DNA of 47,229 nt, filler included, from Jimgerdemannia flammicorona (GCA_003990765.1; 2 parts of 2 records of this genome joined end to end with filler, not necessarily neighbours in it); one strand, 5' to 3'. Shown: positions 12,744 to 43,479, counted from the first letter of the whole stretch. A program made the numbers and translations. The notes: generated by a model from the letters alone, not told the origin.

Positions 12744-12753
12744 TCTTCCTCCT
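12744..12753 (-). other. Polypurine tract of family A
   Basis: AGGAGGAAGA on the minus strand, abutting the LTR start. Confidence 0.75.
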
Positions 12754-13089
12754 GAATAAGAATCTTCTTGAGCATCCTTATTCATTGGTCTAGTCCTGAA
12801 AAATTTACTGATCCCATAACCTCTGGCAAGGGATTGAAAAGTGGTATTTATAGGCTGGTATCTTCCTTATGTATTTTGGTGTAATGGTGAAGAGTCACTT
12901 CCTTCATATAGAGCAAGGGCCTGATTCTGATCTTGACCAATTAGTTAATAGTTCAAACTCTTCTAGCTTTGAAAGTCTTATGGATGAGTAGTTGCTAGTA
13001 CTGTATCTCTTAGAGAATAGTTCAGATAGATAGTCTGCTAGTTATGGAATATGCTGTTATGATTTATAGACTAGAACCTTATAGGTGGT

Positions 13090-15730: not shown

Positions 15731-15799
15731 TATGTGTGCTTGTTCTGGTTCTTGTCTTTCTTGTGCTCAAGTTTGGTAATCTTGGTGGTGGCAGAGGCT

Positions 15800-16200
15800 C
15801 CTTTTCCAGTAGATTCAAAGCCTTATTCTTCTCTCTTGGTCTTGATGAGTTCAATGGCTTCAGTGATCTTGGGCTTCTTGATTTCATAGATCAGCATCTG
15901 GCCAATCCTGTCATGCTTCTTGACTTTGAATAGAGTGGTGGGATTGTGATTCCTGACTATGAGGAAGATCTTGCCAGTATAATCAGGGTTAATTACTCCT
16001 CCTTTGACTGAGATTTCACTTTTGGCCAGACTGCTCCTAGTCTTGATAATTATGACATAGTTCTCTAGCAGCTTGATTCCAATTCCAGTACCAAGTAGGG
16101 TGTTGGTCTGTGGTTTGAGAGTAGCTTCTTGAATACTGGTAAGGTCCATTCCTATGGCTCCTTCAGTCTTATATTCTGGAATCTTGGCTTTAGGGTGAAA
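15800..16200 (-). pseudogene. dUTPase domain between protease and RT
   Basis: Motifs DL, TGI, RSSLA, GGVINPDYTGKI and DRIGQML, plus eroded motif 5 (RE.*GFESTG). Confidence 0.88.
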
Positions 16201-16599
16201 CTTCTTGACCTTGAGGGTGATGTCTGGTTCTTATTTCTCCTCATCATCACTGTTAGCTTGCAGCTCTGGGGGCTGGTCATCTTCTTCAGTTTTTCTTTTG
16301 CTTCAGCAGCTTCTTGCTCATATTTCTGTTGGCAGATTTTCCTAACTTCACTGATATAGGACCAGTAGTCATTTAGGTGTTCAGAGCAGTATATCCTAGT
16401 ATCATGAAGGAATCTTCCTTGAGAGACATAGCCATTGATAATCTTGGTATATCACTGCTCATCTGTGAGCTTGGGTGTCTTATTCTTGTTCTTGTTCACC
16501 AAGTACATAAAGACTTCTGTGTCCTCTTCATCAATTTCCTCTATGTCTGGTAGAACTTCCTTGTGGACATTGATAGAGACTTGTACCTTTCTTCCTCTA

Positions 16600-18310
16600 T
16601 AGTTGATTTATATCTTTTGGACATTGAGGTCAATGATGGCCTTGGCCTTGTAAAGCCATTGATTGCCAATGAGGATGTTATAGTTGGTGGTACTTGTAAC
16701 AATCACATCTACTAGAATAGTGGCTCTTCCTATCTTGATAGAGACTTCTCAGATTTTGCTAAGAAGGGTAGCTTATATACCATCTGCTGTAACATAGATC
16801 ATTTTGGTAGACTCTTCAATGTCCCAGTCTAGACAGTCAATTGTCTTCTTGCTCATGAGATATCCTCTAACACTGATATAATGATAGTATCAAAGATACA
16901 ATCTTCAATCTGATATGTATAGGGTATAGGCTGATGTCTTGTACTGATCTTTAGATTCTTCATCTGAGTTTTTGGATTCTTTCTATGCATTGTGAGCATC
17001 CACAATCTTGGACTCTTGATTCTTGGCAGTAGTTGTAAGTTCTACTCTCACCTACTGTCTGAAGGCAGAGACTTTGGCTAACTGTCCAAAAGTAGCATTG
17101 ACCTTCTGTTTCTTAAGATCCTTGATATTATACTGATGGATCTTGGTCTTACACAGCTTCTGTTCCTTCTTGCTTTTACTTTTTTCTGAGACTGGAGTAG
17201 TGTCTTCAATAATTTGGTAAATAGCTTTATCTAACTCTATATCTTGATCAATTTCCTCAGATTGGGTCTTGCTTTGAATAGTGATAGCTGGGGTCTTCTT
17301 TGGTCTTCCAACTAGCTTGTTATTACTCTTCTTGTCTTAGGGCTTGGACTGGGTTCTGGTACCTTCAGTAGCAGGGCAGAATTCAAGCTCTTTATAGTAT
17401 TATTCATCATCAGTGTCATGAATCTCCTTGATGACTACTATATTGATTTGTTCTCTAGTTCTGCTAGCATTGCTTGGTTGGGCTTTGCAGCTTATTTCAG
17501 TTATACAATTCTTTATATAGTGGCCTTCTTCACCACATCTGAAGCATGTGATATTGTGTTCTTCTGTAGCAGCTGCAAATCTCTATACTGGTCTTCTGTT
17601 AGCACTTCAGACTTCTCTAACAATATCACCAAGATATACAGTTATCTTAGTGAACTGCTTGGCAAGTTCCTCCACTAGGTCAGCTTTGGCTACCTTGGAG
17701 ATAGGTGGAGATAATTATCTGTTTATAACTGTAGTAGGTATGATACCAATTGGTTTTGATAGCTCTATCTTGATGCTAGTTATTTTCTCTATTAAGTATT
17801 CAGTATGATGTCTAGCAGTCCAATATCTCTATACAAAGACCACTTTCTGATCAAGAGTTAGTACAGCTGAGATAGATCAGATTGCTAGGGCAATTTCAGG
17901 GTTAACTCCTTTGAGGAAGGTTAAATCTGCTATTTGTTTATTCCTTGAGGGTATCATCATAGTCAGCCAAGACAATCTGGTAGCAGATTCAGATATTGAA
18001 TGAGTTAAGATCTTCACTGAGTTCTTGGCAGATAGTATTGAGTTGATTCTTGAAAGCTTGCTTGATCTCTTCAGTATAGTATATTGTTCTGAAGAAGGCC
18101 TTCATATTGGCAAGTTTGGCTTCACCAGCATTAGTAATAGTAGCTACATTGAACTTATCTCTGATAGATCCTCTGAGGCTGACTAGTAGAAGGGTCAATT
18201 GTACATCCACACCAAGAGCTCATATGGCAGAAAATTGTTCAAAGTCTTCAATGAAGGTCAGGATTGACTCTTCAGTAGTATATCTATAGAATATGGGGAG
18301 ATACATTTCT
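16600..18310 (-). pseudogene. Family A gag and aspartic protease, degenerate
   Basis: Gag start (PIFYRYTTEESILTFIEDFEQF), zinc knuckle at ~17500-17550 and protease with ILIGNQWL (~16660). Confidence 0.8.
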
Positions 18311-18411
18311 ATCTTATCTTGAATTCTATAGGGGTAACTCTTGTAGTCAGGGTTGTTATTGTGATAGTTATTTATTTTTCAGCTTAAAAGTGAGAGATTT
18401 ATCTTGAATCA

Positions 18412-18428
18412 CCAGCCAATGGGTACCA
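18412..18428 (-). other. Primer-binding site TGGT(G/A)CCCATTGGCTGG
   Basis: Lies 3 nt after the LTR end. Same PBS at ~25866-25882 (-) and 37007-37023 (+). Cognate tRNA uncertain (possibly His). Confidence 0.75.
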
Positions 18429-18431
18429 AGT

Positions 18432-19920
18432 TGTCACATAGTGGTCACTGAGTCCTTCAAATATATCAGATTCTCTTTAAGATATATCTCTTAGCTAACT
18501 TAAGTTTGTTATAAGTAAGTTCTTATTAGAGTACCTTCCTTAGATCTTATAGTCCTCAAACTTCTTATCTTTAATGTTTTTTTATCTCTTAGATTGCTTG
18601 CAAGACAGTGTATATAAGTGAACCAAAACTGACTTTATTTCAAAAGAAATAAGAGAGGTATTTATACAAAATATAATTCAATGATTGCTAAGATATAAAG
18701 CTAAATATAAATTTCAATAACTAAAATAAAGTACTAGGATAGGGAAACCTGTTAAGTTCCAGTATTGGCACTGATGGTTACATAGGTTCAGAATACTAGT
18801 ATAATTTCAGTGATATAGGAAAATAGTACTGAAATAATTCAGAGTCACCTCAGAATACCAGTAGTGGAACAGCTGTTATATAGGAAAAGAGTGCTGAAAT
18901 AATTCAGTATAACTAAGGGACTTTTAGAGCAAAATGTTCAGGACCATAGGGGCTTCATCCTCATCAGAGGTCAGGATGTCTTTGAAGGAGATGAGGTTCA
19001 CAAATATCTCATCTATCTCATCATCATAATCATTATATAGATCACACATTTTGTGTATATCATATGGGATTATGTCATTGCTGATAATGTCATCATATTT
19101 AGTAGTGATAGAAACAAAGAGGTCTAGAGCTCTCCAGTCTATGAGATTCTCTTCTATGAAATAGGGGACAAATGTGGGGTCATGAGGAGGTAAAACCTGG
19201 ATGCTTGGGCCTTGAAATACTGAGATCAATCCTTACAGAAATTGGTCTGAGTTGTCCTGGAGGATGGGATGCCAGAAGTCTTCTACTTCATCACTATTGA
19301 GAGTGATAGTGGACTGTGCTTCTGTAGCTATCCTGGTTTCATATTGATACAGCAGGCTAACAGATCTCTAAAATCTGAGATTCTAATATACTCTAAGTTA
19401 GAGATCAACTACGATTCATGTCTGAAGATCTGATGGATCTTAGCTGTTCTTGCTTCATATATATCTATAGGAGTAGCATCTTATAACTCTTGAGGGCTGG
19501 CCTGTGGGAACTCCTGGCAGAGAAGGTTTCCTATTTTATACTCCTACTATATTTAGAGACATTCAGTAGTAATTGCAATCCTTGTTTCTATTTTAGAGTA
19601 ATAGAGAATATAATGATAAGAGTCACCAGTACCCAGGTTGACACTAGGAGTCCTTCTTAAGCAGATTCTCATAACTATTCTGATGTCTTGGAATATCCTT
19701 TCTTTGACTGAGATACTTTGGTAATTCCTTAACCTTGAGGTTTGGCAAGTAGCAGGTATTTCATTTATGGTAAGTCTTTGAGCTATTTTGGAATTGATAG
19801 GTCTTATTGGTTACTGCTACTATGGTTCCTTGATCCTTCTTTTATATTTCTCAAGATATCCATACTGTGGTTACAATGACTTACAGTTAGTCATCATTAC
19901 TTATCTTATATACTGTATGA
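18432..19920 (-). repeat. Family A 5' LTR, copy 1 (first ~80 bp missing)
   Basis: Collinear with 25886-27350. TATA (TGTATAAATA, ~18658-18667) and AATAAA (~18634-18639) on the minus strand. Confidence 0.88.
18924..19672 (-). pseudogene. LTR(U3)-encoded ORF of family A, ~250 aa, unknown function
   Basis: Same frame recovered in three LTR copies. ORF track fragments 18924-19229 and 12045-12368. Confidence 0.7.
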
Positions 19921-20149
19921 TAAAACCATTTTGTCATGGCTATAAAGATAATAAATATAAAAAGCAAAAAAAGAGAGACTAAGATAGAATATACAAATGC
20001 TCAGTACCAACTATAGAAACAATATTGACACCTAAACACCAAACAACTGACATGAGATATATAACTCTATATACTCTTAACAATAAGAGAACCAACTGAG
20101 GTGAATGAGGGAAAAGAAAGAAATAAAGAAAATATGTAATTGCTCAATT

Positions 20150-20745
20150 ACCCAAGTATCTTCATAATCTCAGTCAGGCAGAACCTGACTATGAGATGAT
20201 CACCAGAGTTATATATAGTATCAATAGTATGGTAGGCTGTCTCATGATGAGTATGAAGAGGATAGGCATAAAAGCTCTTTTATCATTCATTACTAGTAAA
20301 CCAATTGAGCTGTTCATTACAATCAGAGGTATCTTGGAAGATAGAATAGGAATCATTGAGAAGACCATATCTGAGGAGATAACTATAATAAAACTTATTT
20401 CCACAGAGACAGTGACAGGATTGGCCAAAATAACCATAGCACTAGGCAAGAGCAGAATGCACAAGCTGGGGAGGGAAGGAGAGGACACAGTCAGTGCCCC
20501 TAGACTGCAAGTGGTCTTAAGTTATAATGTACTGAATGAGTGCTTGAGAGGAGAAGACCCATTCCTATAGCAGCTAGTCCTAGAGGAATGACTGAAAGAA
20601 GGAGTTGAGCAGGTGAGTCTTGTAGACCTGGGGATAGAGGTCCTATATTATAACTATTTCAGTAGTTGTAACTTAGAGATAGAGAATAAAGATACTGCAC
20701 TTATAAAAGAGTTCTGAGAATTTGTAAGTAATTAGTTACTGATAT
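20150..20745 (+). pseudogene. Degraded coding-like segment of unknown origin
   Basis: 124-aa ORF 20196-20570 continues past stops to a GTAAG at ~20744. CpG-free like the neighbouring repeats. Confidence 0.3.
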
Positions 20746-20749
20746 TGAG

Positions 20750-22810
20750 ATATTTCAATAATATCTATTCCTTTGTCTGTAGATAAGATCGTCTTTTAAA
20801 ATCTTTTAGCAGACAAATTAAAGTTTGAAAAAAATAATTTTTTAAAACATTATTTTTCTGTTAAAAATTTATCTCAATTTGTTTAAAAACAAAATACCAA
20901 AGGTAGAATTATTATATAAAAAATTATTAGTAAAATTTTTTTTAAAAGCTATTATGATTTTAAAAGTTATAAACTTTTAAAATCTTGCCTCTAAATATAG
21001 GTGCAAAACAGTCAAAGGGATATAATAGTTATAGCTAACTATATCTTCTAAGAGATAACTGATCTAATAGTAGCTTGAGATTTATTTAATTTGGTAAAAT
21101 TTACTAAGTATGTTCAGAACATTCTATTGGACTTTTATGAAATAGAGGAGTACTAGACTAAGAATATTTATAAGGAGTAGAGAAGCTATAGCTTAGTTAA
21201 TAATAGTATTCTAAATATTAGTATAAATATAGTTATAGATCTCAGTAGTTATAGCTAGATATATATTTAAGAGTTATAGTTATTTATCTAGTTTGTTATA
21301 GTTATCTATTTTAATATATAGTATTTTTAATACATATACTTTTAGTTCTGATTAGTAAGGTTTCATTAGTATAAATCTTATATTCTGTGACTTCAAGTTG
21401 ACTCAGCTTTATGATCTGTGACTTTGAGTTAATTTCTTTAAAGAGTGATATATAATTATAATAGCTTAGAGATTATGTACTTATATACTTTATAGACTAT
21501 TATGAAATTTATTTAAAAATTTTAAAATATAAATATAATCTTTTATAATACTTGAGATTTATTTATAATATTTTAATTTTAAATTTATATTAAATATTAT
21601 ATACTTTACTAATTTCTTATTAAAGATCAGAATAGATATCTTGGTTATATGTATATTTATATTAGAATTATATTTATATATTTATACTAGTTATATCTAT
21701 ATTTATTATAAAAACTACTTTTATTATTACTAAAATACTTATAGTTAATATACTTATATTTAAATATTATTAGACTAATTTTAGCTTATCATAATATAGT
21801 ATATATTTTTATATATTTATTTATAAATATTTAGTACCAATATAACTCTAATTTATAGTTAATAAAAAGTAATTTTTTTATAATATAAATTAAATTAAAT
21901 TAAATTTAACTTTAGTTCAATTTAATTTAAAGTTCAATTTAAATCTATTATTTTAAAATTCAGTAACTTACTAAACTATATCTAAATTTAATAAACTTTA
22001 GTAAATTAGATATGTTTTATTAAGATAAATCTAATATAATAAATAATATTAAATTTGGTTATATATTTATTAAGTTATTGTATTTGATATTTATAACAAA
22101 AAAAAAATAAATTAAATTAAATTAAATAAAATCTCAGTTTAATTTGAACTTAATTTAATTTATTTAGAAGTACTAATTATAATTACTAATAATATAAATC
22201 TAATAAAATTGTATAAAATTATGTATCTTATAAAGTTTATATCTTAATATAATAAATTAATAATAGTTAATATAAAGATAAATAATATAATTTTTTTTTT
22301 TTTTTTTTTTTTAACTTTAAATAAAGTTATATATTTTCTATTTATTAGTTAATAAGTATTAAGTTTTAATATAATAGATTTATAACTTAAAAAATATATC
22401 TTTTAAATTATTTTTAATATTAAAGCAAGTAATAAAATATACTTTATAATTATAACTAAAGATATTATTACTAAACTATTAAAATAAAACTAAAATATAA
22501 AATAATATGCATATATCTTAATATTTTATTATTAGAATGTACTTATTTTACTAAGCTTTTCTGTTATTTATATATGTTTAGAGTGTAAAGTTTGAGCTAT
22601 TAATTATAATATTAAGTTAAATTTAAACTATATTATATTATATATAAATATATTTTATTAATTAATTAGAAATATAAATTTAAAGTAGGTAGTAATTATA
22701 TATTATTATACTTTTAAGATAAATATATACAACTACTAAATCTTTAAAAAATATAAAATATTATTAGAAATCTTTAGAAATTTTAAATTTATAAATTAAG
22801 AGTAAACCTC
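20750..22810. repeat. Extremely AT-rich eroded repeat relic
   Basis: Nearly all A/T with abundant TA dinucleotides. Abrupt transition to GC-balanced DNA at ~22810. Confidence 0.6.
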
Positions 22811-22936
22811 TAGTCATCGATTTGTAAGTAATGTTTTACAGAAGTCAAAATTGGTCTGGCTTCTACCGTATTTGGTCCGAAATACGCCGCTGCCTAAAAC
22901 ACGCCCAACCACCACCACGAAATACTCCAAACCACC

Positions 22937-23400
22937 ATGCCCAAAACTCACAAGGTCCGACCTACTACCTTAAATAGAAAGCGACCAAAGAACAAAGACA
23001 AAGGCCAAGTGATTCAAATGGATTCAAGAAGCCAAAAGAAACGTAAACTCTCAGATAGTGAGGAGGCCGATGAAGGTAAATAGTTATCTTGAACTGAGTT
23101 GTACTTTGCAAGTCTCTCGTGTGATAATGTATGCTATATGCACCAACTCAAACTTACTGTTTCAACAGTCGCCAACCGGCAATCACCTACGCCAGGTGCG
23201 TATCACTCTGGGAAACGATTGTGGCCTGTTTCTCCTAGTGGTCGTGATTTGACTTTGCATTTGATGGAGTCAAAAAGCTCTCTGCAACTTGCCGACTTTT
23301 ATTCATAGCTCCTCTTAACTCTCTTCTCTACGCACAGGACTGGAGGACGAGGCCTGTGATGACCCTGAGAAAAAAAAGGCCAAAACGTCCAAAATAAGAG
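22937..23400 (+). CDS. 5' exons of an unknown basic/acidic (NLS-like) protein; continues into the assembly gap
   Basis: ACCACCATG start. Exons 22937-23075, 23169-23195 and 23338-23400 with GT..AG phase-1 introns in one frame (MPKTHKVRP..KKRKLSDSEEADE/VANRQSPTP/GLEDEACDDPEKKKAKTSKIR). Confidence 0.6.
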
Positions 23401-23570
23401 GTAAGCGAGCAATCATTCGAATGGTTAGAGTATCAATTTCTATTCGGTAGTGCGTTTTCAGCAATGGGAGAAAGGGGCTAGGAACCATAGTTACGTAGAG
23501 CTCCATATTCTTGAACGTCCAGTTAAGAGAACATATCTGATCATTCGCGCTGGTTTCTTCACTTCACGGC

Positions 23571-23670
23571 NNNNNNNNNNNNNNNNNNNNNNNNNNNNNN
23601 NNNNNNNNNNNNNNTTAATTAATTAANNNNNNNNNNNNNNNNNNNNNNNNNNNNNNNNNNNNNNNNNNNN
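23571..23670. other. Assembly gap spacer (N44-TTAATTAATTAA-N44)
   Basis: Symmetric 100-nt artificial linker with stops in all frames. Confidence 0.95.
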
Positions 23671-23834
23671 AATTTAGGGCTGCTGTTTTGTTTGCTCGTG
23701 ATGCGGCAGGAAAGAACAAAGAAAAAGAACAAAGAAAAGAGAGGGAACAAAGGAAAGGGTGATGTCACCAAAGTGCGGCAGGAAAAAAAAACAAGAGCAA
23801 AATGAACAAAAGAAAGGGTGACGTCACCAAAGAT

Positions 23835-24017
23835 TTCAATCCGAATGGATCAATCCGGATGGGTCAATCCAGATGGGTCAATCCGGATGGATCAATCCAG
23901 ATCAATCCAGATCAATCCAGATCAGATCACAAGACCAATCCGAGTTGATTCGAATCCATCACATGACGAATCTGAATCGAATCTCATCTGGATCAACTCC
24001 ATTCGTTCAGAGCACTA
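23835..24017 (-). mobile_element. Possible DNA-transposon terminus (hAT-like) with subterminal GATCAATCC(A/G)G repeats
   Basis: Ends in GTTCAGAGCACTA (reverse complement TAGTGCTCTGAAC) exactly where the family A protease is cut. About 8 short repeats inside. Partner end not seen. Confidence 0.4.
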
Positions 24018-25885
24018 TTTGTGGACATTGATAGAGACTTATACCTTTCTTCCTCTATAGTTAATCTGCATCTTCTGGGCATTGAGATTAATGATGGCCT
24101 TGGCCTTATGAAGTCATTGATTATCAATAAGGATATCATAGTTGGTGGTACTTATAACAATCACATCTACTGAGATAGTAGCTTCTCCTATCTTGATGGG
24201 AACTTCTCAGATTTTGCTAAAGAGAGTAGCTTGTGTACCATCTGCTGTGATATAGACTATCTTGGTGAACTCTTTAATGTTCCAACCTAGGTGGTCAATT
24301 GTCTTCTTGCTCATAAGATATCCTCCAGCACTGGTATCAATAATGGTATCAAAGATACAATCTTTGATCTGACATGGGGTATAGGCTGATGTCTTGTGCT
24401 GATCTTTGGATTTTTCACCTAAGTCTTCTGATTCTTCTTGTGCATTGTGAGCTTCTACAATCTTGTACTCTTGATTCTTGGTAGTAGTTGCAAGTCCTAC
24501 TCTCAACTGCTATCTGAAGGCAGAGACTTCAACTAGCTGTTCAAAAGTAGCATTGATCTTCTGTTCCTTGAGGTCCTTATAGATATCATACTGGTGGATC
24601 TTAGTCTTATATAGCTTTTATTCCTTCTTGCTTTTGCTTTCTCCTGAGACTAGAGTAGTATCTTCAATAATTTGGCAGACAGCTTTATCTAACTCTATGT
24701 CTTGATCAATCTCCTCAGATTGAGTCTTACTTTGAATAGTAACAGTAGGGGTCTTCTTTAGTCTTCCAACTGGCTTGCTGTTGCTCTTCTTGTCATAGGG
24801 CTTAGACCAGATTCTGGTACCTTCAGTAGCAGAGTAGAATTTGAGCTCTTGTAGTATTCTTCATCATCAGTATCACCAATCTCCTCAATAACTACTGTAT
24901 TGGTTTGTTCTCTGGTTTTGTTAGCATTGTATAGTTGGGCTTTGCATCTTATTTCAGTTATATAATTCTTTGTATAGTGGCCTTCTTCTCTATATCTGAA
25001 GTATATAATATTGCATTCTTCTATAACAGCTGCAAATCTCTATGCTGGTCTCCTGTTGGCACTTTAGACCTCTTTAACAATATCACTAAGGTGTACAGTT
25101 ATCTCAACAAACTACTTGGCAAGTTCCTCTACTGGGTCAGCTTTGATTATCTTGGGGGTAGGTGAGATTGATTGTCTGTTTATAACTGTAGCAAGTATGA
25201 TACTAGTTGGCTTTGATGGCTCTATCTTTATGCCAGTTATTTTCTCTATTGAGTGTTCAGCAGGGTGTCTGACAGTCCAATATCTCTGTGCAAAGACCAC
25301 TTTCTGATCAAGAATCAGTGCAGCTAGGGTAGACCAGATTGCTAGGATAATTTCAGAGTGAACTCCTTTAAGGAAGATTGAATCTGCTATTTGTTCCTTA
25401 AGGACATCATCATAGCCAGCCAAGACAATCTAGTGGCAAATTCAGATATAGAATAAGTTGGGATCTTCACTGAGTCTCCGGCAGATAGTATTGAGTTGAT
25501 CTTTGAGAGCTTGCTTGATATCTTCAGTATAGTATATTGTTCTGAGGAAGGTCTTTATGTTGGCAAGTTTGGCTACACCATTATCAATAATAGTGATTAT
25601 ATTGAAATTATCTCTGATAGGTTCTCTGAGACTGACTGGTAGAAGGGCCAATTGTGTATCTACACCAAGAGCTCATACTATGGCAAATTGTTCAAAGTCT
25701 TCAATGAAGATCAGGATTGACTCTTCAGTAGTATATCTATAGAATGTAGGGGGATATATTTCCATCTTATCTTAAATTCTTGCAGAGATGACTCTTGTAG
25801 TCAGGGTAGTTATTGTGGTAGTTATTCATTTTTCAGCTTGAAAGTGAGGGATTCATCTTGAATCACCAGCCAATGGGCACCAAGT

Positions 25886-27434
25886 TGTTATGTAGTAGTC
25901 ACTGAGTCCTTCAAATATGCTAGATTCTCTTCAAGATATATCTCTTAGACTAAATTAAGTTTGTTATAAGTAAGTTCTTATTGGAGTATCTTCTTAAGGT
26001 CTTATAGTTCTCAAAATTCTTATCTTTAAACTATCTTATTATCTCTTAGATTGCTTGCAAGAGATTGTATATAAGTGAACCAGAACTAACTTTATTTCAG
26101 AGGAAATAAGAGGAGTATTTATACAAAATATAATTCAATAGTTGCTAAGATATAAAGCCAAATATAAATTCTAATAACTAAAATAAAATACTAGAACAGA
26201 AAAAACTGCTAAGTACTAGGGTCAGTACTGGTGGTTATACAGGTTCAGAATGCTGGTATAATTTCAATAGTATAGGAAAATGGTGCTGAAATAATTCAGT
26301 ATCATATTAGAATGCTAGTATTGGTATAATTCAGTATCACCAAAGGACTTTAGAGCAGAATATTTAAGACCATAGGGGCTTCATCCTCATCAGAGATCAG
26401 GATGTCTTTAAAGGAGATAAGGTCCATGAATTTGTCATTATCACATAGGTCATGTGTTTCATATATATCACATATCTTGTATATATTGTATGAGATGACA
26501 TCATTACTGATGACATCATCATTTTCAGCAGTAGCAGGAATAAGGAGGTCTGGGGCTCTTCAGTCTATGAGGTTCTCTTCTACAAAATAGGGGACAAATG
26601 TGGGGTCTTAGAGAGGTCTAACCTGGATGCTTGGGCCTTGGAATATTGAGATCAATCCTTACAGAAATTGGTCTGGGTTATTCTGGAGAATGGGATACCA
26701 GAAGTCTTCTACTTCATCACTGTTAAGGGTGATAGTGGACTGGGCTTCTGTAGCTATCCTGGCTTCTAGTGCATTAATACATCAGGCTGATAGATCTCTA
26801 AAGTCTGAGACTCTAACATACTTCAAGTTAGAGATTGACCATGGTACATGCCTGAAGATCTGATAGATCTTCTTAGCTATCTTTATTTCATGTATATCCA
26901 TAGGAGTGATATTTTGTAGCTCTTGAGTACTGGTCTGTGGGAACTCCCAGCAGAGGAGGTTTTCTATTTCATACTCCTACCATATTTGAAGGCATTTGGT
27001 AGCAATGGTGATTCTTGTTCCCATTTTATGATAGTAGAGAATATAATGATAAAAGTCACCAGTACTCAAGTTGATACTAGGAGTTCTTCTTGAATGAGTC
27101 CTCATGACTCTTCTGATGTCTTGGAACATTCTTTCTTTGACTGAGGTACCTTAGTGGTTTCTTGACCTTGAGGTTTGATGAGCAGCAGATATTTCATTTA
27201 TAGTAAGTCTTTGAGCTATTTTGAAATTAGTGGGTCTTGTTGATTGCTGCTACTGTGGTTTCTTGATCCTTCTTTTATATTCCTCAAGATATCCATATTG
27301 TGGTCACAATGACTCATGGTTAGTCATTATTGCTCATCTTATATACTATATAATCTTTTTGTGCTCTGATCTGGTGGCTTGTAAGAAAAGACTATCTCTT
27401 ATACTGATGTCATCATTCTGGGATCACTGTTACA
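25886..27434 (-). repeat. Complete family A LTR (1549 bp, TG...CA)
   Basis: Minus strand begins TGTAACAGTG and ends ..TAACA, followed by ACT and the PBS. Confidence 0.88.
26350..27105 (-). pseudogene. LTR(U3)-encoded ORF of family A, 251 aa when read through point stops
   Basis: ATG 27105 to TAA 26350 spans 756 nt in frame (MRTHSRRTPSINL..EDEAPMVLNILL). Confidence 0.72.
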
Positions 27435-27950: not shown

Positions 27951-28254
27951 TATCATACTCAGCTGCAAAAACTATACAATAATCTAGAACAAAAACATCA
28001 ATACTGCATACAACCTCTGGGCCATTGTACTGCATATAAGCACCCATAGAGGCATAGTGTCAGAAATCTTCAAGCAAGCAACAAAAACCAATGAGCAGCC
28101 AAGGCCCACTATATTTCCATAAAACATGTGTATTTTTGGATTTTAATCAACAAAGGGACTTTTTCAGTTAATTTGAAATATAACACTAGCCTTCCAAAAC
28201 AAATTTTAACTGCAGCCTTAATAATGGTGATATGTACGTTCGACAACCTGCTCA

Positions 28255-29491
28255 TCACGATTCTATCGCCACATGCTTCTCGCCCTTCGTCCCCTCCACC
28301 TCCATCCCCACCCCATCCACCTGCTGGTCGGCCACCAATGCCACCATGTTCTTCAAATTGTTCGGGTCCTGTACGCGCAGGGTCTTGATACGCGCGATGC
28401 TGTTGCGGTCACCGTCCCATTGTCTATATAGGATGGAGGGAATTGTGAGTCAGAAATTTCGAGTGAGAGATGGAACGTGACGGATACTGATCGAATAAAA
28501 ATGATAAAGATGGACGGACCTTATGATTTGAACATTCTTGGGGTTGGTCAGGTCCGGTACCTCTGCGTGATGGAATGGGAAGTCGTTTTCCGGAAGGAAC
28601 AGATTAGACGAACGAAGCGCACATTTTACGATACATATCATCACGTTCATGATCGAGACCTCAAAGTCAACCCCTTTTTGTCGACCAACATTACATCAAT
28701 GCATCCACCATAATCACCCGTCCCTTCCCATCTCCTTCCCGCCAACGGTACCTCCCTACACCCATGTCAATGAAGACACTCAAAAAAGCAAAGCACGCAC
28801 CAAACCCCTTCGCATACTCGTCCCGCTCCTTCTTAATCAACGCTATCAGTAAATCCTCCCTGGCAGCTTTTGGTCGCTGCCCTTTCCGATGGAGCGCTTT
28901 AAGCTCTGTGAGCTCCTCGTCGTGCCGCTTCAGGTACCTGTTAACGGGGGAATGATGCACGAGTGAGCGAACGTCGCAAGATGCGGCGATGAACGATTGG
29001 GAGTTCGAACCGTACATGTCGATAAGGTCGTGCAGCTCCAACCGGGTCGCGCAGGGCAGTGCGTCGTCCAACGCGTAGCGAAACCAGAGCCAGCGTTCGA
29101 CTGCGTTAGGAGGAGAACGGGTATGAGCGAGAGAAATAAGCGGGCAAAGTTCTTTGTAGTCGTCCATACAGTTTCCGAAAACCCCTCGCTGCGACGACGG
29201 CACACTATCACACCGAAAACACAAAGACGCCCAATGTCAACCCACCCAAAGGGTTCGCCGCTAACCTCCTCTCTGCCATCTTCTTTTCCAACCTATCGTT
29301 GCGCATAAGGACTCGCGTCAGTTGGCTCGCCTTGCGCCCTGATGGGTGCAGTGTGTCGCGGTTCTTGATCGTTTTGAGCGTATGACGTTTGTTGTTGGGC
29401 TGCGTTGGCGATTGGACGAAGAGGGAGGTATGAATGACTATGCGCAGATGAAAAAGAAACTTGATTGCAACTGAGTCCGAGATGGTACCAT
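28255..29491 (-). CDS. TMA16: Translation machinery-associated protein 16 (pre-60S factor), 6 exons, 196 aa
   Basis: Exons 29491-29489, 29399-29246, 29100-29016, 28937-28801, 28562-28520 and 28423-28255, all GT..AG and in frame. Motifs LHPSGRKA, RHDEELTEL..RPKAAREDLL..EYAKGFEVPDLT..WDGD. Confidence 0.9.
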
Positions 29492-32400
29492 TATCAAAAG
29501 TGTGATTGCTGTGTTGGTTTGTTCGAAGAAAAATTAAAGGTCGCTGTCCAAGCCACAATTTTGTTTTACCGTCACAACGAGTAACGCGGTCGTCGTGGCA
29601 AGCAGGATAATGTATTCAACATATTTATTTATTCAACTACATGATATATCATAAACAAATGTATAACTCTCAAAAAAAAAAAAAAAATGCATCCCTCTCG
29701 GCATTACCCAGAAGCCACCACGAGGAAGTACTTTATAGCGCGCCGTCTTGAAATCTACCACCCATCCAGATCACCCCCTATGCCAACCCCGCCGACTTGC
29801 CGCCCCCTCTTCTTTTTCTTGCTGCACCGGTACGACGGTCCATCGTAAGCCGATTCTAATATGGGCAGGACTTATCCGTGGGAATCATCCACTTGCCTAG
29901 GAGACTGTTGCTGCAGTATGACTGTTGCTACAGCGTCCTCTTGACTTCATCCGGCCAGGTATATATATATACGTGAGTGAGAGACGGAGGTGACGCCATC
30001 CTGCTTGACTCTGTGCTCGCATGTGACTCAGCACGGTTCCTGTAAAAAAGGAAAAGAAAGAAAAGAGAGAGTAAGAACGCGAAAACGTGAAATCAAAATG
30101 GCAGTTCGGTCTTGGGACACGGAGTTGAGTGGCCCTGTGGAAAAATAAAAGGGTTTCCGATCAAGTGCAGGGGGTTGTCAACGGAAGCTTGGGAAAGCAC
30201 AAACTAAAGCATGAAAAGGAAAGAAAGAATGAAGGATGGGAGGATGGCGACAGATGGACGGTTGGTCGTATAGATAACATGGCGTTCATGCGAGAAACGC
30301 GCATCGCCCGAAACCTGAAACAGCAATCACAAATTGTGATGTGGGTGTTTTCGGAGCCGCCTTCTTTTCCGGTTAATCCGGTTAGTCTATTCTACTTTGA
30401 CGCGAGACGTCATTGAAAATTTGTAATTGATAGACACGACCAAGTAGGGAATGCAATTAATTCGTCATAGACAGGCTGCCTATGGATGGCCCGCGTAAAC
30501 ACAAACAAAATGGTCTTGGACGAGCCTCATTCTTGCTCAAGGATTATCGTTCACACGAGTGTTAAAGTTTCATGGGTTTGTGGGCATAGCAGTTACTCGA
30601 TCTCACATTGGTGCCAAGTTAGCCGTTTGTCACATCACTCTGTTTATATATACGTCATCTTTATTCGCCTGGAACTTGGTGAGATTTATTTTTGACTTTA
30701 CGAGAAATAGAATGCATCCAGAAAATCTTCAAGTGAAATTATTGGTCGGCATGTCCGGTCGCTCTCACTTCGCTCGTGCCCGACGTGTCTATGGCTCTTC
30801 GGGCCCTTTCCACACCAACCTTGCACTCTGCTTCATCTTCGCCATGCCTTTTGCTGTGCACTGCGCCGTGCCTTGCGGTGGGCCTTACTTCATGCTCTGT
30901 TTTACTCCTGCCTTTCTTGCCTTGCTGCCAAATACCGCTTTCTTGTGCATCGGCATCTTGTCTTTACTAACGAATTTTTGTAATGGTTTGGGCAGTTTCC
31001 TTCTCACTGCCTGTACGAAGGTGGCTATATCGGAGCCTTGATTCCAGATGTTGACCGTTGTCGTCTCGGTGCCGTTATGCTCGACCACGAGTGTATTTCC
31101 CAGTTGTTCTACATGTCTGAGCATGTTGTCTATGCTCCTATTATTAGCGAGCCTGCTCTGATTGCATCGCATGCTTCAAATGTTATGTATGGTCTGCACG
31201 GCTTCGTCTGGTCAATGTTCTCATACTGCTGCTACTGTCGCTGCTGCGCGTCGCCTGGCTTGCATTTACCGCTATGGCCTATATATCTTTTCTAGCGCTT
31301 GCGCTATTAATTTTCATCGCCTTCATTGACGTCATCTCGGATTTTCTTCTACACTTTATTTCTTTGCCATGCTTCGTCTGAGCTGCATCCTCGAGCACGT
31401 CACATGGTATTATTACTTTACATATCGCAGATTTAATTATTCTCATCTCCATGTCACTTCAGTCTCGTCATCAATTCCATCGATACTATGTTCAATGGTG
31501 AAGTGACGAGTGATTGCATGAGGAGGACCTGATGTACGTAGGTATGGCAGTTCGCGAAGAATGAATGCAATGCATCCGTTCAGGCCTGTAAATATTGAGG
31601 AAGAATTTGCATAAAAAATAAGCTCGGCAGCGGGATGAATGTCGCGGAGGGGAGAGATATCGGCGGATGCATTGCAGCAGAGAAATTGGCAGAGAGATCT
31701 CGGCGGAGGGGCTTAAAACTGAGATTCAAACAAAAGGGAATGCATACTATTTCTGGAACCAGTAAAGGCGTAAACATCAAAAGTGCCAACTATATGTCTT
31801 AGGCGATTCCACCCTGATGGCTGTCCAATGTAAAGGTGTCTCACAAAGAATTGGATGTCATCATTTATCTCAGCTGTCCGTCCAGCCAGCACGATCGTGA
31901 ATATTGGCATTTGTGAGAGGTAGAGAGGTGGAAGTAAGGAAAGCACACTTAGGATATATCCCAAGAATATATAGCTGACAGAATTTGGTAACGCAGGCAA
32001 ATATGTCTAATGTACATCTTTTTTTTTTTTTTTTTTTACGAGACTAATGTACATCTTACCCAATACTTACATCCATGCAGCAAGCTTGGATATTTTGCCT
32101 ATACACTATGCCCATTTCAAAACTTAGCAAGTAGAACGATAGCGCATGTTATATACATCCCGCATACCGCAAGCTGCAAGCCACAAGCCGTTAATAAGGG
32201 TTAATAAGGGCGGAGATTGTTGGATCTTTTGCGTTTTGCTGGAACCTGTTGAGGCCTAAAATGAACCTGCAAGCTGTGAAAGATTACCTGTATGACGTCA
32301 CTATTACTTTGGTTAAAATGATAATGCAGTTCTTTACTTTACTTCTTACTAAACCCAAACTTCGACGCGGACGCGTTAAGTAAGTTCACCGAGCTCGCTG

Positions 32401-34092
32401 ACTCTGCCATTGCCACCTTACTTCCGGATCCACTGCCGTCAACCCTCCTCTCCCCCGTCAACAAGGCACCTGAGACTCCAGCTACAACCATCCTCGCGTC
32501 GTTGGGCTTTCGTAGGTCAGATCAACTCCCTCTAATACACCAATGCGATGGGTGGTGGGAGTCAACTGGGTGACTGCATGGTTGGACGCACAAAGACTGG
32601 AAAAAAAAATTATGAAAGGTGGAACCAACAGAGGTAAATGTTGGCCTTTGTTTTTCGTGTTTGCGCGCAAGCGCAGCGGGGGTGCAAAGTGAAAGGAAAG
32701 ATGCATGCAAGGGATATAGGAAATCCAACAGGAAATGTACCGACGCTTTCTTTTTTCTTTTTGTTTTTTGGTCACCTTGACACTTCTAGGAGATCTTACT
32801 AACCTTGCGTTCATACCTGACGTACCACATTTCCAAAAGAGGAGATACAATCCTACGGACGTGATAACGGGCTCACGCTGGTGATATACAAGATTTTTGA
32901 TGAACTCATTCTGCATGACAGTATGTATATGTTATACGACTATATTACACCATGCATGGAATTTTTCTAATAAAATCTGCATTAACATCTTTTCGGCAAA
33001 TATTTTCACTCATATGATTACTTTGTCATGATTGACAGAAATCCGTTATTTCAGCAAAGCCATCGCTCCAAGGCGCCGCTTAGTAGCGTGGGTACATGCA
33101 CGCAATGCAAGCCATGCTGCTGTTATGGTTTCATGGTTCAATGTCATTTTTTGCATGATATAATTCCGTATAGAAGAATTGTGTGGTCTCACAGAATTCA
33201 CATTTTCTCTTTTTTCTTATACCAAGCAATAACAGAAGCTCATTGAACCATCGGTTGCCAGAAAAACGATACTGGGAAAGGGGAAGGAGATGGCCAGCAA
33301 ATTATGCGCGATATTGGAGGTGCCAGAGAATAGATAAATAGATGATTGCGATATATACGTCGAGGTTTTCAAGCCCTATGTGGGTTAGGTAGTGTACAAT
33401 CGTAAACAATCGGAGTCGTGGAGCCAGGTTGTTTTTTTTTTTTTTTTTTTCTAAAAATCTTCGGCAACAGGAAGTAAATCGTTCCCGTGTTCCCATGCAA
33501 TTCCTATGCCTATGCAGCCAGACAGCAACGTGAATATCAAGAAGTTGTTTTTGGTGATATGGGGCGGTGTGCCCAAAGCTTTGGCGATATGACCGGCATT
33601 GTGTATCTCATATCTTTATCGTTGAAGCGGTTCGCAATGTTTTTGCAGACAATCTTGAGGTGAACGACCTTTTCCACGCACCTTGCCGCCCACATTGAGT
33701 TCGAAGTTTTGTCAGTGGAAAGCGAACGAATCTCTATGTATTTCCTGTGCTGACCTTGCCACTAAATAAGACATTGATTTAAATGTATGATTGATCGATG
33801 ATACAGCATTACAATGCAATTACCTTTTGCATTCAAGACAACCAAATCATAAACCATTTCTTTGGATGCGCTTTCAAAGCTAGTATATACCTCATTTGGC
33901 TTAGACCAAATATATCCGAATACAATCGCGCTGCGCAACACACAGTAACGTCGCGCAGTCGCGTAATTAGTTGTACAGTCGTATGACTAAAGAACTGCTG
34001 TAAGACACAGCACTTATACTAAAACCGCGTGACGTCAGCCGGTGGCGGATGTGACTGCCATATAATCCAACTATCGACTAATTGTTGTTATC

Positions 34093-34121
34093 ATCGACCA
34101 TCGACCATCGACCATCGACCA
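34093..34121 (+). repeat. 7-bp tandem repeat (ATCGACC x4) just upstream of the F-box gene
   Basis: Seen directly in the sequence. Confidence 0.8.
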
Positions 34122-34161
34122 ATTGACTATTATCATTGACAACCCACTACTCTTCTCAACA

Positions 34162-35355
34162 ATGCCTTACAAGCCTAGACGCAGTAAGCGCAAGGTACAC
34201 TCTTTCAAGATGTCCAAGACATACAGCCTTTCTGTGGACATTGCTACACGCATTCTTGGCTACATCAAGATCGACAACAACTATAGCCGCAATATGTATA
34301 ACTTCGCTCTGGTCGAAACTTCATGGCGTAATCCTGCCATACACTTCCTCTATACTCACCTCAAATTTACAAGTTATGACAACATGATCAACTATCTCCT
34401 CAAGATTCACTATCATCCAAACTACGCTAGTCTCGCTCGCTCTATTTGCCTTTCGAGCCTCGCAGGACCCTCAAACCTGGAAATACAACTCTGCCACCTC
34501 GTCCAATCTTGCCCGAACATCATTTCGTTTAAGCTATTCAAGTGCCCTCCGACCTGGGTTACTGATCTGGTCCTCTTGACCATGGGGGCTTATTGGCCAA
34601 GCCTCACCGAACTCTCTCTCCAAGGCCGCAAATGCTGCCATGGCAGCGCGTTAATAATTGCCATCAAAAGCTGGCCAGACTTAACCCGCTTGGACCTTAC
34701 CAACGTCTCGGGGATCAATACAAACCAGTATCACGAAATTATCCGGAGTCTCCCGAATCTTCGCTTCCTTCGCTTGTCCCGCCTAGTCAATGAGCCATCG
34801 TTTCCCGACCTCATGTTGGACAGTCACCTGCGCGCAATCAGCGACACGAGCCAGCATCTCGAGGTCATTGACTTCAACAACTGCAAGCGTCTCTCTAACC
34901 CGTGCATGCTCAACTGCTTCAATAACCTCACCAACACTCTCAAGTGTCTCAAAATCACAGGGTGCACCCAAATCACAGGTATCACTCTCGCCAGGATCAT
35001 TGTCGCCTGTGCCTCCCTTCGATTTGTCAATATCTCTCGCTCCTCCTTCAACGATGAGGCCCTCTACCACCTTTGCGGCACCCATGCCTGCCAGTGGATT
35101 GAGCAATTCGCAATGTCCAACTGCTCTGGCATATCGTTAGCACCATTCTGTCTTTTTGCCAACAAGCTCGAGTCCCATGTGCGCGACGGACACGTCAAGA
35201 AGTGTATCGTGTACATCCAGGGAATGGCGTTGAAATTGCCCAGGAACCGTATGAAGAAGATTGAGAAATCTAAGCCTGGCCTCATAATCAAGGCGGATCA
35301 CGAGGGGTTTGTCCTCGATGAAATTATGGAGTCCATCATTGGACTGGTTGTCTGA
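34162..35355 (+). CDS. F-box-like + leucine-rich repeat (RNI-like) protein, intronless, 397 aa
   Basis: Divergent F-box (LSVDIATRILGYI..ALVETSWRNPAIHFLY). Cys-containing LRRs (LTELSLQG, LEVIDFNNCKRLS, LKITGCTQIT). Confidence 0.85.
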   Translation: MPYKPRRSKRKVHSFKMSKTYSLSVDIATRILGYIKIDNNYSRNMYNFALVETSWRNPAIHFLYTHLKFTSYDNMINYLLKIHYHPNYASLARSICLSSLAGPSNLEIQLCHLVQSCPNIISFKLFKCPPTWVTDLVLLTMGAYWPSLTELSLQGRKCCHGSALIIAIKSWPDLTRLDLTNVSGINTNQYHEIIRSLPNLRFLRLSRLVNEPSFPDLMLDSHLRAISDTSQHLEVIDFNNCKRLSNPCMLNCFNNLTNTLKCLKITGCTQITGITLARIIVACASLRFVNISRSSFNDEALYHLCGTHACQWIEQFAMSNCSGISLAPFCLFANKLESHVRDGHVKKCIVYIQGMALKLPRNRMKKIEKSKPGLIIKADHEGFVLDEIMESIIGLVV

Positions 35356-35559
35356 AAAGATATGGGCGGGGTAGAGCGTATCTGTATCCCTATTCATATG
35401 TAAATATGTAGCTCAAACATCTTGTCATCAGTGCTCTTCCTAGTATTATAAAATGTCCTCGTTCTTTTCCTTTGCACAGTATCAAAGATGTCTTTCACCT
35501 AAAAGTTGTCAGCTTTAATGATTTTAAAGAGTTCCCCCCCCCCCTCTTTTTTTTTAAAA

Positions 35560-36527: not shown

Positions 36528-37003
36528 TGTGACGATACAGCCAAATTTGGAAGAAGGAAATAGGAAATAGATACTTGATTACACCCATTCCCAAAGTAGT
36601 ATAACCTTATAGTTAGTAGTTCTCGATTTCGACATTGTCTAAGTTCTTAGACATTGTCTAAATTTTAGACATTATCCAAATTGGATACCCCGATTTAGTA
36701 TAGCATTTAGACATTGTCCAAATGTTTCGACAAAGTCCAAATGACTCATTTATTACTTAGCCACCCTCTCATAGCTAGTAAACTTGTATAAATAACCCAG
36801 TATCTTTGAGTGAATAAACCTCAGATCGAAATAGTTCAAAGCAAAGAGATAGCAAAGGAACTAGTAAGTCTGTGGGCAGATACACTTCGAACTCACCCAC
36901 CCTCCCCTGCCACTTCAAGAGACTCTACGAGAGTCAGAACAGTCAAGTTTTCAAGATACAGAAATCTGACATACTTTCAAGAGTAAGCATCCGCTACATT
37001 ACA
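36528..37003 (+). repeat. A2 5' LTR, 476 bp (TG...CA), no ORF
   Basis: TGTGACG start and ..ATTACA end. TATA ~36787, AATAAA ~36813, internal GACATTGTC(T/C)AA repeats. Confidence 0.82.
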
Positions 37004-37006
37004 ACT

Positions 37007-37023
37007 TGGTGCCCATTGGCTGG
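37007..37023 (+). other. Primer-binding site TGGTGCCCATTGGCTGG
   Basis: 3 nt after the LTR end; same as family A. Confidence 0.8.
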
Positions 37024-37433
37024 TGATTCAAGATGAATCCCTCACTTTCAAGCTGAACAACAAACAACTGCCACTACCCGAACAACCATACAAACCGAGC
37101 CCCAATACCCAGACAAGATGGATATGAGACCACCAGTATTCCATGGATATACCTCAGATGAATCAATCATCACCTTCATTGATGATTTCGAGCAGTATGC
37201 TGCCGTAAGGACTCTGACAGCAGCACAGCAAGTAGCTCTCATGCCCTTCAGCCTACGAGGCCCTGCCAGAGCAGCATTCACAGCTGCAACCTATGCAGGA
37301 AATGATGCCGATGCTATATATACTGACAGTACAGAAGACCTGGCTCCGAAACACATATTATACAGATGAGATCAAGCAAGCCCTAAAGGATCAGCTCAAC
37401 ACAACATGCCAAGGAATGAGCGAGGACCCAAAC

Positions 37434-39498
37434 TATAAGCGCACAACCTCCAAGCCACCGAAACTACACGTCACCCTCTGAACCAAGCCACTGAAATCAC
37501 ACGCGACCTCCGAACAAATCTGGAAATCACCTGCTTGATCACGAAGCTGAGTCAAACCGAAGTCACAGCGCACAAAGCTGAGTCAATATGAAGTCACAGA
37601 ACATAAGATCTACACAAACAGAACCTTACCAATCAGGACCAAATGCATATATACTGAGCACTGAGACACGTTGAATCAGAGAACTAAAACAAACAATAAC
37701 CACAACTTCCAAACACACAAACATGACCACTGAGATCTACAACTGTATCCGCACTGACATTTGGAATGCCATTGTCAACTGAGCCACACCCCCCCTGCCC
37801 CTCATGAATATCCATAGCCTGGCACCCCTCTACTTCGTGGAAGCCTGATGGAATGCCCTGAATATGCTTAGCAAGGCCCACCGAATCGGACAAATCTCAA
37901 GCTACTACCAGATTGGCCGCCTCCTGGAAGACATGATCAAATACCACCATGATACAGACATTACCCAGATGTCTCAACACCAGAAGCTCATCGCCCGTAA
38001 ACATCGAGAACTCTTCTATGAGTACAACACCTTTATTCCCCGCCTCCGAGTTACTACCAGTGAAATGGTTACTACCCTGTCCTACAGCCAAATCGATGAC
38101 ATGATACAAGAGATCAACCACAAGTACCTCAAATATGTCCAGACTACAGACAGAACCTTTCCGCACCCTGATGACCATATCCTGCAAATGCCCCAAGTTG
38201 GATACACCATGAAGGACATCTATGATATAATCCACTTTGATGAAGATGAAGCAGAAGACAATGATCCCTCTGATGCCGACATGACCTCCAGCCAAGAATC
38301 TCTGCCAACCCTGATCACACTGCCAAACTTACCGATGAACTTGCAACAGTTCATAACTGCATACGAGACTTATTGGGACAATGACCACTGGCACGAATAC
38401 CAACCCGCATTCACCCCCGATTACTTCAATTACAATGAAGAGACCAGAGAACACAACCTGTACCTTCAGACAACCCTTGAGATCGAACCAACCACTCCAC
38501 CACCCAAGTACGAGCGACATGAACCACAGCTGCCAGCATACTATAACCCTGCAACTCATAGTGCCATAACCTATAGAAGGTACGCAGACAGTGAATCCGA
38601 TGAAAGTGAAGACAATACACCCATCCTTTGTCCATCAACACCTTATCCAGCATACGAAACAGACGATGCTATCCTGTGGGACGGAGATGAAGTTCCAATG
38701 TATTATTACCTCAGCAAACAAGGAGAAGTAATCCGCAAACTACTCTTCCTAGATAACTACTTCATCAGAGATGATGCAATTGATGGTGATATCATCGAGG
38801 ACTACCCAGATAGTGTCTAAACCTATAAATAGTCTAGCAGTCATAGTATAGTTAGATTAGCCTTGTACGACATAACTGTGAACTGACTCAGCAGTCAGAC
38901 GATCTCTTGATATGTCAGATTACACTTGTACTACGTGACTGCATTCCGACTCAGCAAGGTACTTAGTGCTACATCCATATTCAGTATAGTCCAAATAGCC
39001 CCTCACTAGTATAAATACCCCCTCCCCCAGACCTCAGAATCTCAGACTTGAACAATCCGAACACAACTCCTGAGCACTTCCCCACAATATCCCTTCACAC
39101 AAATACTCCTAGTATAGCAATATCATGAATAGCAAATAAACCTATTCCATAACCCACAAACCACTCTTAAGTAAATTCGCTCCCTGTTAGGTCCTACTCC
39201 TAACCCCATCACGAAATTTCCTAATTGGGTATTGTCTGCAGCGATATGCCAATTCAACTAAGCTGGTCTTAGTTTCTTGAACTTCCTGAAATACGGAAAA
39301 TCCTGAACATCCAGAACTAGTCCGAAAAAGGACTTTGGTTGAGACGTCAACCCGATCTAGAAATCAATAAGTGTAGAGAATGTACTCCATACGAAATTGA
39401 TCTTGACCATAAGAAAATAGTCTTCCAGAACATCCAGAATATCCAGAAAACCCTCCCAGAACTATATAATGGTTACCCTAAAAAGTAACCCTCTTACA
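37434..39498 (+). repeat. Element B 5' LTR (2065 bp)
   Basis: Direct repeat of 43480-45548. TATAAATA ~39010, AATAAA ~39135. Confidence 0.93.
37723..38820 (+). pseudogene. LTR(U3)-encoded ORF of element B, 365 aa (two CGA->TGA stops near the start)
   Basis: Starts MTTEIYNC. The stops are CGA in the 3' LTR copy. 318 aa remain open (37864-38820). Confidence 0.8.
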
Positions 39499-39501
39499 AC
39501 T

Positions 39502-39512
39502 TGGTAGCAGTG
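39502..39512 (+). other. Primer-binding site TGGTAGCAG (initiator tRNA-Met type)
   Basis: 3 nt after the LTR end; complementary to a tRNA ending CUGCUACCA. Confidence 0.75.
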
Positions 39513-42897: not shown

Positions 42898-43055
42898 AGA
42901 AGAGTATGAAGTTGAACAAATCCTCAACAAACATGGCAACAAGAACCATCCTGAGTACCTGGTCAAATAGAAAGGTTACCTGATCCACGATGCAACCTGG
43001 AAACCTAAGACCAATCTCCAGAATGCTACCAACCTAGTTCAGGAATATGATTCCT
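42898..43055 (+). other. Chromodomain
   Basis: EEYEVEQILNKHG..EYLVK*KGY..DATWKP..L.NA..LVQEY. Confidence 0.88.
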
Positions 43056-43478: not shown

Positions 43479-43479
43479 T

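Follow-up and report, generated by a model that had tools for sequence, protein, structure and literature searches.

Evidence for a conserved orphan gene inside the U3 region of a dUTPase-bearing gypsy retrotransposon of Jimgerdemannia flammicorona, with a probable homologue in a second lineage

The 47,229-nt stretch of Jimgerdemannia flammicorona DNA analysed here (the window) is made of nested long terminal repeat (LTR) retrotransposons flanking a short stretch of ordinary genes (28-35.4 kb). Two Ty3/gypsy families with a dUTPase domain, A and B, carry an open reading frame (ORF) in every one of their LTR copies; in both families it lies on the sense strand, wholly within the unique 3' region (U3), between the LTR 5' end and the LTR TATA motif. 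We give a probability of about 60% to the following reading: the ORF of the family A LTR found at 25886-27434 (copy X) is the decayed copy of a conserved orphan gene located entirely in the U3 of a dUTPase-bearing gypsy element, and the corresponding gene of family B is a probable homologue of it over the N-terminal part of the protein.

The U3 ORF of family A and its external relatives

Family A is a minus-strand Ty3/gypsy family whose LTR, as delimited by self-blastn and by an alignment of three copies, is 1,549 bp long. The 5' LTR of element X (25886-27434, minus strand; alignment, motif coordinates and self-blastn) starts with TGTAAC and ends with ACA. The layout that the original prediction had given for this LTR, i.e. 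ORF, TATA, AATAAA, CA and primer binding site, was borne out by the three-copy alignment and the motif coordinates: the ORF occupies LTR positions 306-1085 of 1,549 and the TATA is at position 1311. On the minus strand of the window, 3' of the ORF, are found the putative TATA motif TATAAATAC, also written GTATAAATAC (26124-26115), and the putative poly(A) motif AATAAA (within 26098-26090), both recognized at the motif level; the primer binding site TGGTGCCCATTGG (25870-25882, minus strand) follows the LTR end after a 3-nt spacer.

Copy X spans 26350-27129 (minus strand), i.e. 259 codons plus a stop, with five in-frame stops and no frameshift; the frame as a whole runs from 27138 down to 26353 (262 codons), and its stops are TAG, TGA, TAA, TAA and TGA. 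The start was set at the Met at 27129 (MFQDIRR) because the intact external homologues begin at that residue; the Met at 27105, initially taken as the start, is internal. Copy Y-5' (18924-19696, minus strand) is carried by the 5'-truncated 5' LTR of element Y (18432-19921, minus strand; self-blastn and alignment); it has one frameshift, which divides the frame into 19705-19331 and 19340-18927, and six in-frame stops. The third copy, Y-3' (about 12392-11988, minus strand), is in the 3' LTR of the same element (12743-11988, minus strand), which is truncated by unrelated DNA: it contains the N-terminal part of the ORF, cut after ~135 codons, within an open stretch (12443-11991) that ends at the truncation point (11988). 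The ORF was found in the three A LTRs of the window (3/3). It is from the third copy (12443-11991), and not from 26350-27105, that the A peptide quoted in the original prediction had been taken.

The evidence that this ORF is a gene comes from outside the window. A word-indexed protein search with the read of copy X (P0004) gave four matches among 174 scored candidates (E 3e-62 to 4e-110), of 247, 271, 215 and 174 aa and with 63-72% identity. A profile built from these four relatives retrieved eight proteins at E<=1 among 8,000 scored, with E ranging from 6e-42 to 3e-157. The eight relatives are metagenome-derived, 36-76% identical to the A ORF and all open; their records are from JGI or ENA and bear at most the name 'hypothetical protein'. 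P0021 is 58% identical to the A ORF, and P0023 (342 aa, on a 4,848-bp contig) is 36% identical across 100% of the query (E 5.9e-42). The conserved blocks of the family are EYEIG.LL, AKKIHQ.F.H.PW.IPNL.YV, LWNPILQD.PDQ, FQGP, PYF and a C-terminal LNF; six of the eight aligned sequences, window copy X included, share the C-terminal ..LN(F/I)LL followed by the stop. At each of the five stops of copy X (5/5), the homologues show Q, R or W, as expected of decay by C-to-T and G-to-A changes. Because eight database proteins match well beyond chance, we conclude from these sequence comparisons that the U3 ORF of family A represents a genuine protein-coding gene, conserved and orphan.

Wider scans brought no additional relatives. 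In metagenome contigs, 243 pattern matches were obtained with the A alignment and 21 with the B alignment, none of which was confirmed; the same was true of the 125 pattern matches given by the A alignment in viral contigs. Among the 20 sequencing runs listed, none contained half of the query words (best 0.26) and none was an RNA run.

The U3 ORF of family B

The two family B LTRs are on the plus strand, at 37434-39498 (5' LTR, 2,065 bp, TG..CA, with TATA at 39009-39018 and AATAAA within 39133-39141) and at 43480-45548 (3' LTR, 2,069 bp). The B ORF lies at LTR positions 290-1387 of 2,065, with the TATA at 1576; it was found in both LTRs (2/2), plus one remnant elsewhere. The 5' copy (37723-38820, plus strand) has 365 codons, two of which are TGA stops in place of a CGA in the 3' copy. 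In the 3' LTR, the ORF (43769-44867, plus strand) stays open over 293 codons, until a 4-bp insertion shifts the frame. Since each LTR copy is open wherever the other is broken, the B ORF was intact at the time of insertion.

An exhaustive HMMER search of 1.84 billion representatives found for B only P0011 (247 aa, ~65-66% identity over 247 open codons) and P0012 (128 aa, 88% identity), plus one spurious protein. The latter, P0013 (E 1.7e-5 in the B search), is a six-fold repeat protein with an inflated summed score; it collected 24 stray Pfam names without a significant stretch and did not match the A profile, and it was discarded.

The remnant is at 20649-21252 on the minus strand; detected by tblastn, hidden Markov model (HMM) scan and blastn, it is heavily decayed and retains ~49% amino acid identity. 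An HMM scan of the window for more U3 ORF copies found none besides it. The B-like LTR remnant to which it belongs (21424-20649, minus strand) abuts the truncated start of the element Y 5' LTR.

Comparison of the A and B proteins

It had been proposed, from a by-eye alignment, that the A and B ORFs are homologous. Profile-profile comparison with hhalign recovered the by-eye register, and we regard it as probable, on sequence grounds, that the N-terminal ~110 residues of the two proteins are remote homologues. A shallow pair of profiles (close A sequences plus fragments) gave an E of 0.14. When the A profile included the divergent P0021 and P0023, E was 3.4e-4 (probability 37.6%, 107 columns, 21% identity), with A residues 16-125 aligned to B residues 25-131. 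The alignment extends upstream of the by-eye register, where PS.NL...DPYHFIL (A) faces PLMNI...APLYFVE (B). Beyond this N-terminal domain no confident A-B alignment was obtained; a short P.F.P..F..E motif occurs in both ORFs. The acidic tails attributed to both proteins were confirmed, the net charge of the whole proteins being -20 to -39.

Controls were clean. The real score (35.2) was reached by none of 200 column shuffles of B (mean 14.5, standard deviation 2.6, maximum 24.4). Among 67 stop-to-stop window ORFs of at least 100 aa used as decoys, the B copies (28.9 and 27.8) ranked directly below the two A fragments, with the next best at 19.9 and the median at 11.8. In a scan of the six-frame translated window with the A HMM, the B ORF was the best non-A match and the sole other colinear one. 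The influence of profile diversity was followed over 28 pairings of A and B sub-profiles (hhalign): P was 0.03-0.09 for P0014 alone and 0.01-0.09 for the four close A sequences; for the three- and seven-sequence diverse A sets, it was 7e-5 to 2e-4 in the best pairings and 1e-3 to 2e-3 with the other two B sets. The register was nearly constant across sets. A pairing free of window sequences (seven A proteins versus P0012) gave a P of 7.3e-5 and a probability of 62.5%. Remote homologues behave in this way, the signal strengthening as the profiles become more diverse while the register is unchanged. The predicted helices also coincide in the hhalign register (A 26-62, 79-102 and 115-128; B 34-73, 85-110 and 121-141), which, coming from models of low predicted local distance difference test (pLDDT) score, is weak support for homology at best.

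Weight of the evidence

Several observations count against the reading proposed here, that of a conserved U3 gene in A with a homologue in B. No intact A or B U3 ORF exists among the window copies (0 copies; stops, frameshifts or truncation), and the transitions between A copies are distributed 51/21/51 over codon positions 1/2/3, which is not a purifying-selection pattern. Pfam gives no functional clue, none of nine ORF proteins reaching any curated cut-off (there were two chance-level listings, E 0.026 and 0.088); PDB sequence profiles gave 0 matches for A and two non-significant ones for B; and the best ESM Atlas values, 0.89 (B) and 0.86 (A), were both below 0.9, with weak Basidiomycota leads only. 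The BLASTP comparison of A with B was negative (best E 0.78 and 0.37). The hhalign probability varied from 0.4 to 62.5% over profile depths and never reached the usual >90% level, the A HMM matches to B were worth just 5.4 and 2.0 bits, and both profiles are shallow, with an effective number of sequences of about 1.3-2. The AlphaFold2 models are too poor for fold comparison (pLDDT 44.8 for A and 34.8 for B). Finally, the TATA-like sequence upstream of the A ORF, GTATATAAG, has a C in one copy and may be a product of C-to-T decay. As to the codon-position test, it is uninformative on the window A copies because post-insertion transitions dominate their differences; these copies being relics, the case for selection depends on the external proteins.

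The first alternative is that the open frames are fortuitous, or were produced by a gene caller misled by repetitive DNA, and do not code for any protein; the lack of an intact window copy, the absence of family matches and the low AlphaFold confidence would all agree with it. We hold it to be very improbable, since diverged non-coding DNA would not retain frame: P0023 aligns full length, with 36% identity, the conserved motif blocks and 0 stops, and the 365-codon B frame, intact at insertion, shares ~65% identity with P0011 along 247 open codons.

A more serious alternative, although still rather unlikely in our view, is that both U3 ORFs are real but unrelated, each lineage having got its own, and that the N-terminal match reflects a similar helical, amphipathic composition. 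The negative BLASTP result, the E of 0.14 with shallow profiles, the ceiling of 62.5% in hhalign probability, the C-terminal halves without confident alignment and the restriction of detectable similarity between the elements to the dUTPase (tblastx, see below) are what this alternative would predict. Against it, reversed B and reversed A, which retain composition and periodicity, score only 14.5 and 15.8 versus 35.2; the signal grows with profile diversity while the register stays constant; with the A fragments set aside, the B ORF comes top of the remaining 65 window ORFs; and the U3 position and strand are the same in A and B. The earlier claim of homology is therefore retained in part: its register and the shuffle and decoy controls speak for it, and the BLASTP result and the 62.5% ceiling keep it short of certainty.

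Structure of the elements and distance between the lineages

Both families have the LTR features of Ty3/gypsy elements, i.e. TG..CA ends, a polypurine tract before the 3' LTR and a primer binding site after the 5' LTR. For family A, element X comprises the full 5' LTR plus ~1.9 kb of internal sequence, reaching 24019. The internal region of element Y (12754-18431, minus strand) contains many stops and encodes gag (CCHC), protease, dUTPase, reverse transcriptase (RT), RNase H and integrase; its polypurine tract AGGAGGAAGA (12753-12744, minus strand) directly precedes the 3' LTR. The pol order RVP_2, RVT_1, RT_RNaseH, Integrase_H2C2 and rve, found by Pfam in three stop-read-through frames, is that of Ty3/gypsy elements, and the dUTPase (PF00692, E 6.9e-22) comes after the protease. 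No chromodomain was matched at E<=0.001 in any of the three frames of this decayed copy (Pfam).

In family B, the internal region (39499-43479, plus strand) encodes gag (CCHC), dUTPase, protease, then an integrase SH3 and a chromodomain. The primer binding site TGGTAGCAGTGG follows the 5' LTR after a 3-nt spacer (ACT, the same as in A), the polypurine tract AAGAAGGAGAGAG is just before the 3' LTR, and the 5-bp target-site duplication is CAAAC/CAAAT. The chromodomain (PF00385, E 3.1e-10; Pfam) makes B a chromovirus; the dUTPase (E 5.9e-31; Pfam) comes before the protease. RT, RNase H and the integrase core are deleted and the remaining domains are in one nearly open frame; the B copy, without these three, is a non-autonomous deletion derivative. 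It interrupts the gag of a third element, A-like and on the plus strand (36963-37433 and 45549-47229; ~70% nucleotide identity to A), whose gag CCHC and protease resume after the insertion. No recognisable U3 ORF was found by HMM scan in the LTR region of this A-like host element (~35.4-37.0 kb, GC 24-32%).

The distance between A and B is large. A tblastx comparison of the two elements detected the dUTPase only (39% over 94 aa, E 6e-16), gag and protease being undetectable, so that describing them as distant clades is fair, though both are dUTPase-bearing Ty3/gypsy elements. The stated lack of DNA similarity between their LTRs also held, blastn (word 11, E<=1e-10) giving no match. Despite this null result, an identical 10-mer, GTATAAATAC, is the putative TATA of both A (26115-26124) and B (39009-39018), and the two LTRs share a TGTAA start and an ACA-ACT-TGGT LTR/PBS (primer binding site) junction (25883-25889; 39494-39504).

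Common descent and old exchange may each account for the origin of the shared ORF. We judge it unlikely that the homology results from gene movement between lineages (recombination or template switching of co-packaged RNAs) and not from inheritance. The dUTPase, which lies on opposite sides of the protease in A and B, fits such movement, as do the varied dUTPase positions and the independent acquisitions suggested for fungal gypsy families in the available part of PMC2864245, and the extra ORFs common to diverse bdelloid retroelement types in that of PMC5408684. However, at ~21% identity the U3 ORFs show no greater similarity than the remainder of the elements (39% in the dUTPase), so a recent transfer is not demanded. 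In the portions available of PMC2864245, dUTPase-bearing Ty3/gypsy elements are reported from basidiomycetes and Tuber, and the dUTPase position varies among Postia placenta families as it does between A and B: in PosPlaTy3-3 and PosPlaTy3-5 (Postia placenta) and in Phanerochaete and Tuber elements, the dUTPase is N-terminal of the protease (as in B) or lies between the protease and RT (as in A).

Decay of the transposons and surrounding sequences

The B LTRs (37434-39498 versus 43480-45548) differ at 103 of the 2,061 positions compared, in every case by a transition and most often at CpG or CpA. The CpG observed/expected ratio is 0.01 in family A (11988-27434), 0.44 in B and 0.97 in the host genes (28000-35400), which include those for a Tma16-like protein and a leucine-rich repeat protein (Pfam). 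All U3 ORF copies of the window have been inactivated by transposon-targeted C-to-T hypermutation, which spared the host genes. The divergence of the LTRs therefore overstates the age of the insertion.

Other features of the window were noted. The block between the two A elements (20000-24018), in which the decayed B-like remnant lies, is very AT-rich, with GC down to 17%. Positions 1-11000 contain more retroelement remains, among them an RT (1542-2543, minus strand) and a chromodomain/integrase-tail-like match to B (7829-8092); these remains do not match the U3-ORF profiles. The first 5 kb have a strong C-over-G skew (GC skew about -0.5). The DNA that truncates the element Y 3' LTR (~11400-11990) has a higher GC (0.47) and a GTG/GCG-type microsatellite, with GAGVGV repeats read on the minus strand; a 222-codon open frame runs there on the plus strand (11406-12074).

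Possible expression and function of the U3 protein

The genomic transcript includes U3 at its 3' end only, so that translation of the ORF would call for a subgenomic or spliced mRNA, or else for a promoter within U3. The first route would be that of the retroviral genes in, or overlapping, U3. The second would initiate transcription within the first 300 bp of U3 and rely on the LTR's own poly(A) signal; in B, CATATATAC is found ~70 bp upstream of the ATG in both LTRs.

The tails of both proteins are strongly acidic and rich in bulky hydrophobic residues, and the N-terminus is basic in A. A helical binding domain followed by an acidic-hydrophobic effector tail would best fit a nuclear regulator with an activation domain. 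That the U3 protein trans-activates the LTR of its own element is our best guess, held with low confidence. The main alternative, less plausible still, is a counter-defence role against host cytosine deamination or silencing, like that of retroviral anti-APOBEC factors. The transposon-specific, all-transition hypermutation, the presence in both lineages of a dUTPase, an enzyme tied to uracil avoidance, and the inhibition of AID/APOBEC mutagenesis by the Rem protein of mouse mammary tumour virus (MMTV), as stated in the abstract of that work, are compatible with it; the argument is however purely contextual, with no link in sequence or structure to any such factor. Taken together, the notion of an accessory U3 gene family of fungal dUTPase-bearing gypsy elements, ancestral or exchanged, whose product trans-activates the LTR or counters the C-to-T defence, is a tentative one that we would not favour over its alternatives combined.

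The sag gene of MMTV is a superantigen gene encoded wholly in the LTR U3, and the position of the A and B ORFs reproduces this arrangement. Like the A and B ORFs, sag is several hundred codons long, reads in the sense direction and precedes the TATA within the U3 of an LTR of unusual length; both LTRs therefore carry it, and it is transcribed at the 3' extremity of the genomic RNA. It differs by the lack of any sequence relation, and here the host is fungus-like, there is no env and the protein is acidic. The nef gene of human and simian immunodeficiency viruses and bel/bet of foamy viruses overlap U3, and Tas and Tax are retroviral trans-activators. Like the genes proposed here, these are 3'-end accessory regulatory genes reaching into U3, and by analogy they would share with A and B the use of a subgenomic mRNA and an effector acting on the LTR or on host factors. 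Unlike the A and B ORFs, which are entirely inside U3, nef and bel/bet only overlap it, and no homology was found.

Among retrotransposons, those of bdelloid rotifers have extra ORF3s, and a dUTPase in three of four lineages (PMC5408684, as far as its available text goes). According to the same text, the ORF3s resemble the A and B ORFs in being additional to gag and pol and common to diverse retroelement types; they differ by their recognisable Env, GDSL esterase or DEDDy domains, and a location in the LTR is not described in that text. As far as sequence comparison can tell, none of MMTV sag, nef, bel/bet and the bdelloid ORF3s is a relative of the A and B ORFs. In PMC2864245, the legend of one figure refers to an 'add. 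ORF ... unknown function' carried by some fungal elements; this additional ORF may be a partial earlier sighting of the U3 ORF. In full-text searches of the literature, no U3-borne ORF family was found described for fungal LTR retrotransposons, though subscription papers and the figure or supplement of PMC2864245 may hold one.

Significance

In these two deeply diverged, dUTPase-bearing lineages, a gene is thus present in U3. Accessory genes are what distinguishes 'complex' retroviruses from simple retroelements; to our knowledge, the usual description of fungal LTR retrotransposons is limited to gag and pol. Repeat masking would hide a conserved protein gene internal to the LTR in nearly every fungal annotation. 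Even if it is non-functional in all living copies, it would still be a useful marker to classify lineages A and B. If it is functional, it would help to understand how these elements control their own activity or oppose genome defence. Solo LTRs could then be coding: with the gene, promoter-like motifs and poly(A) motifs all within the LTR, every LTR, solo LTRs included, would be a potential expressed copy.

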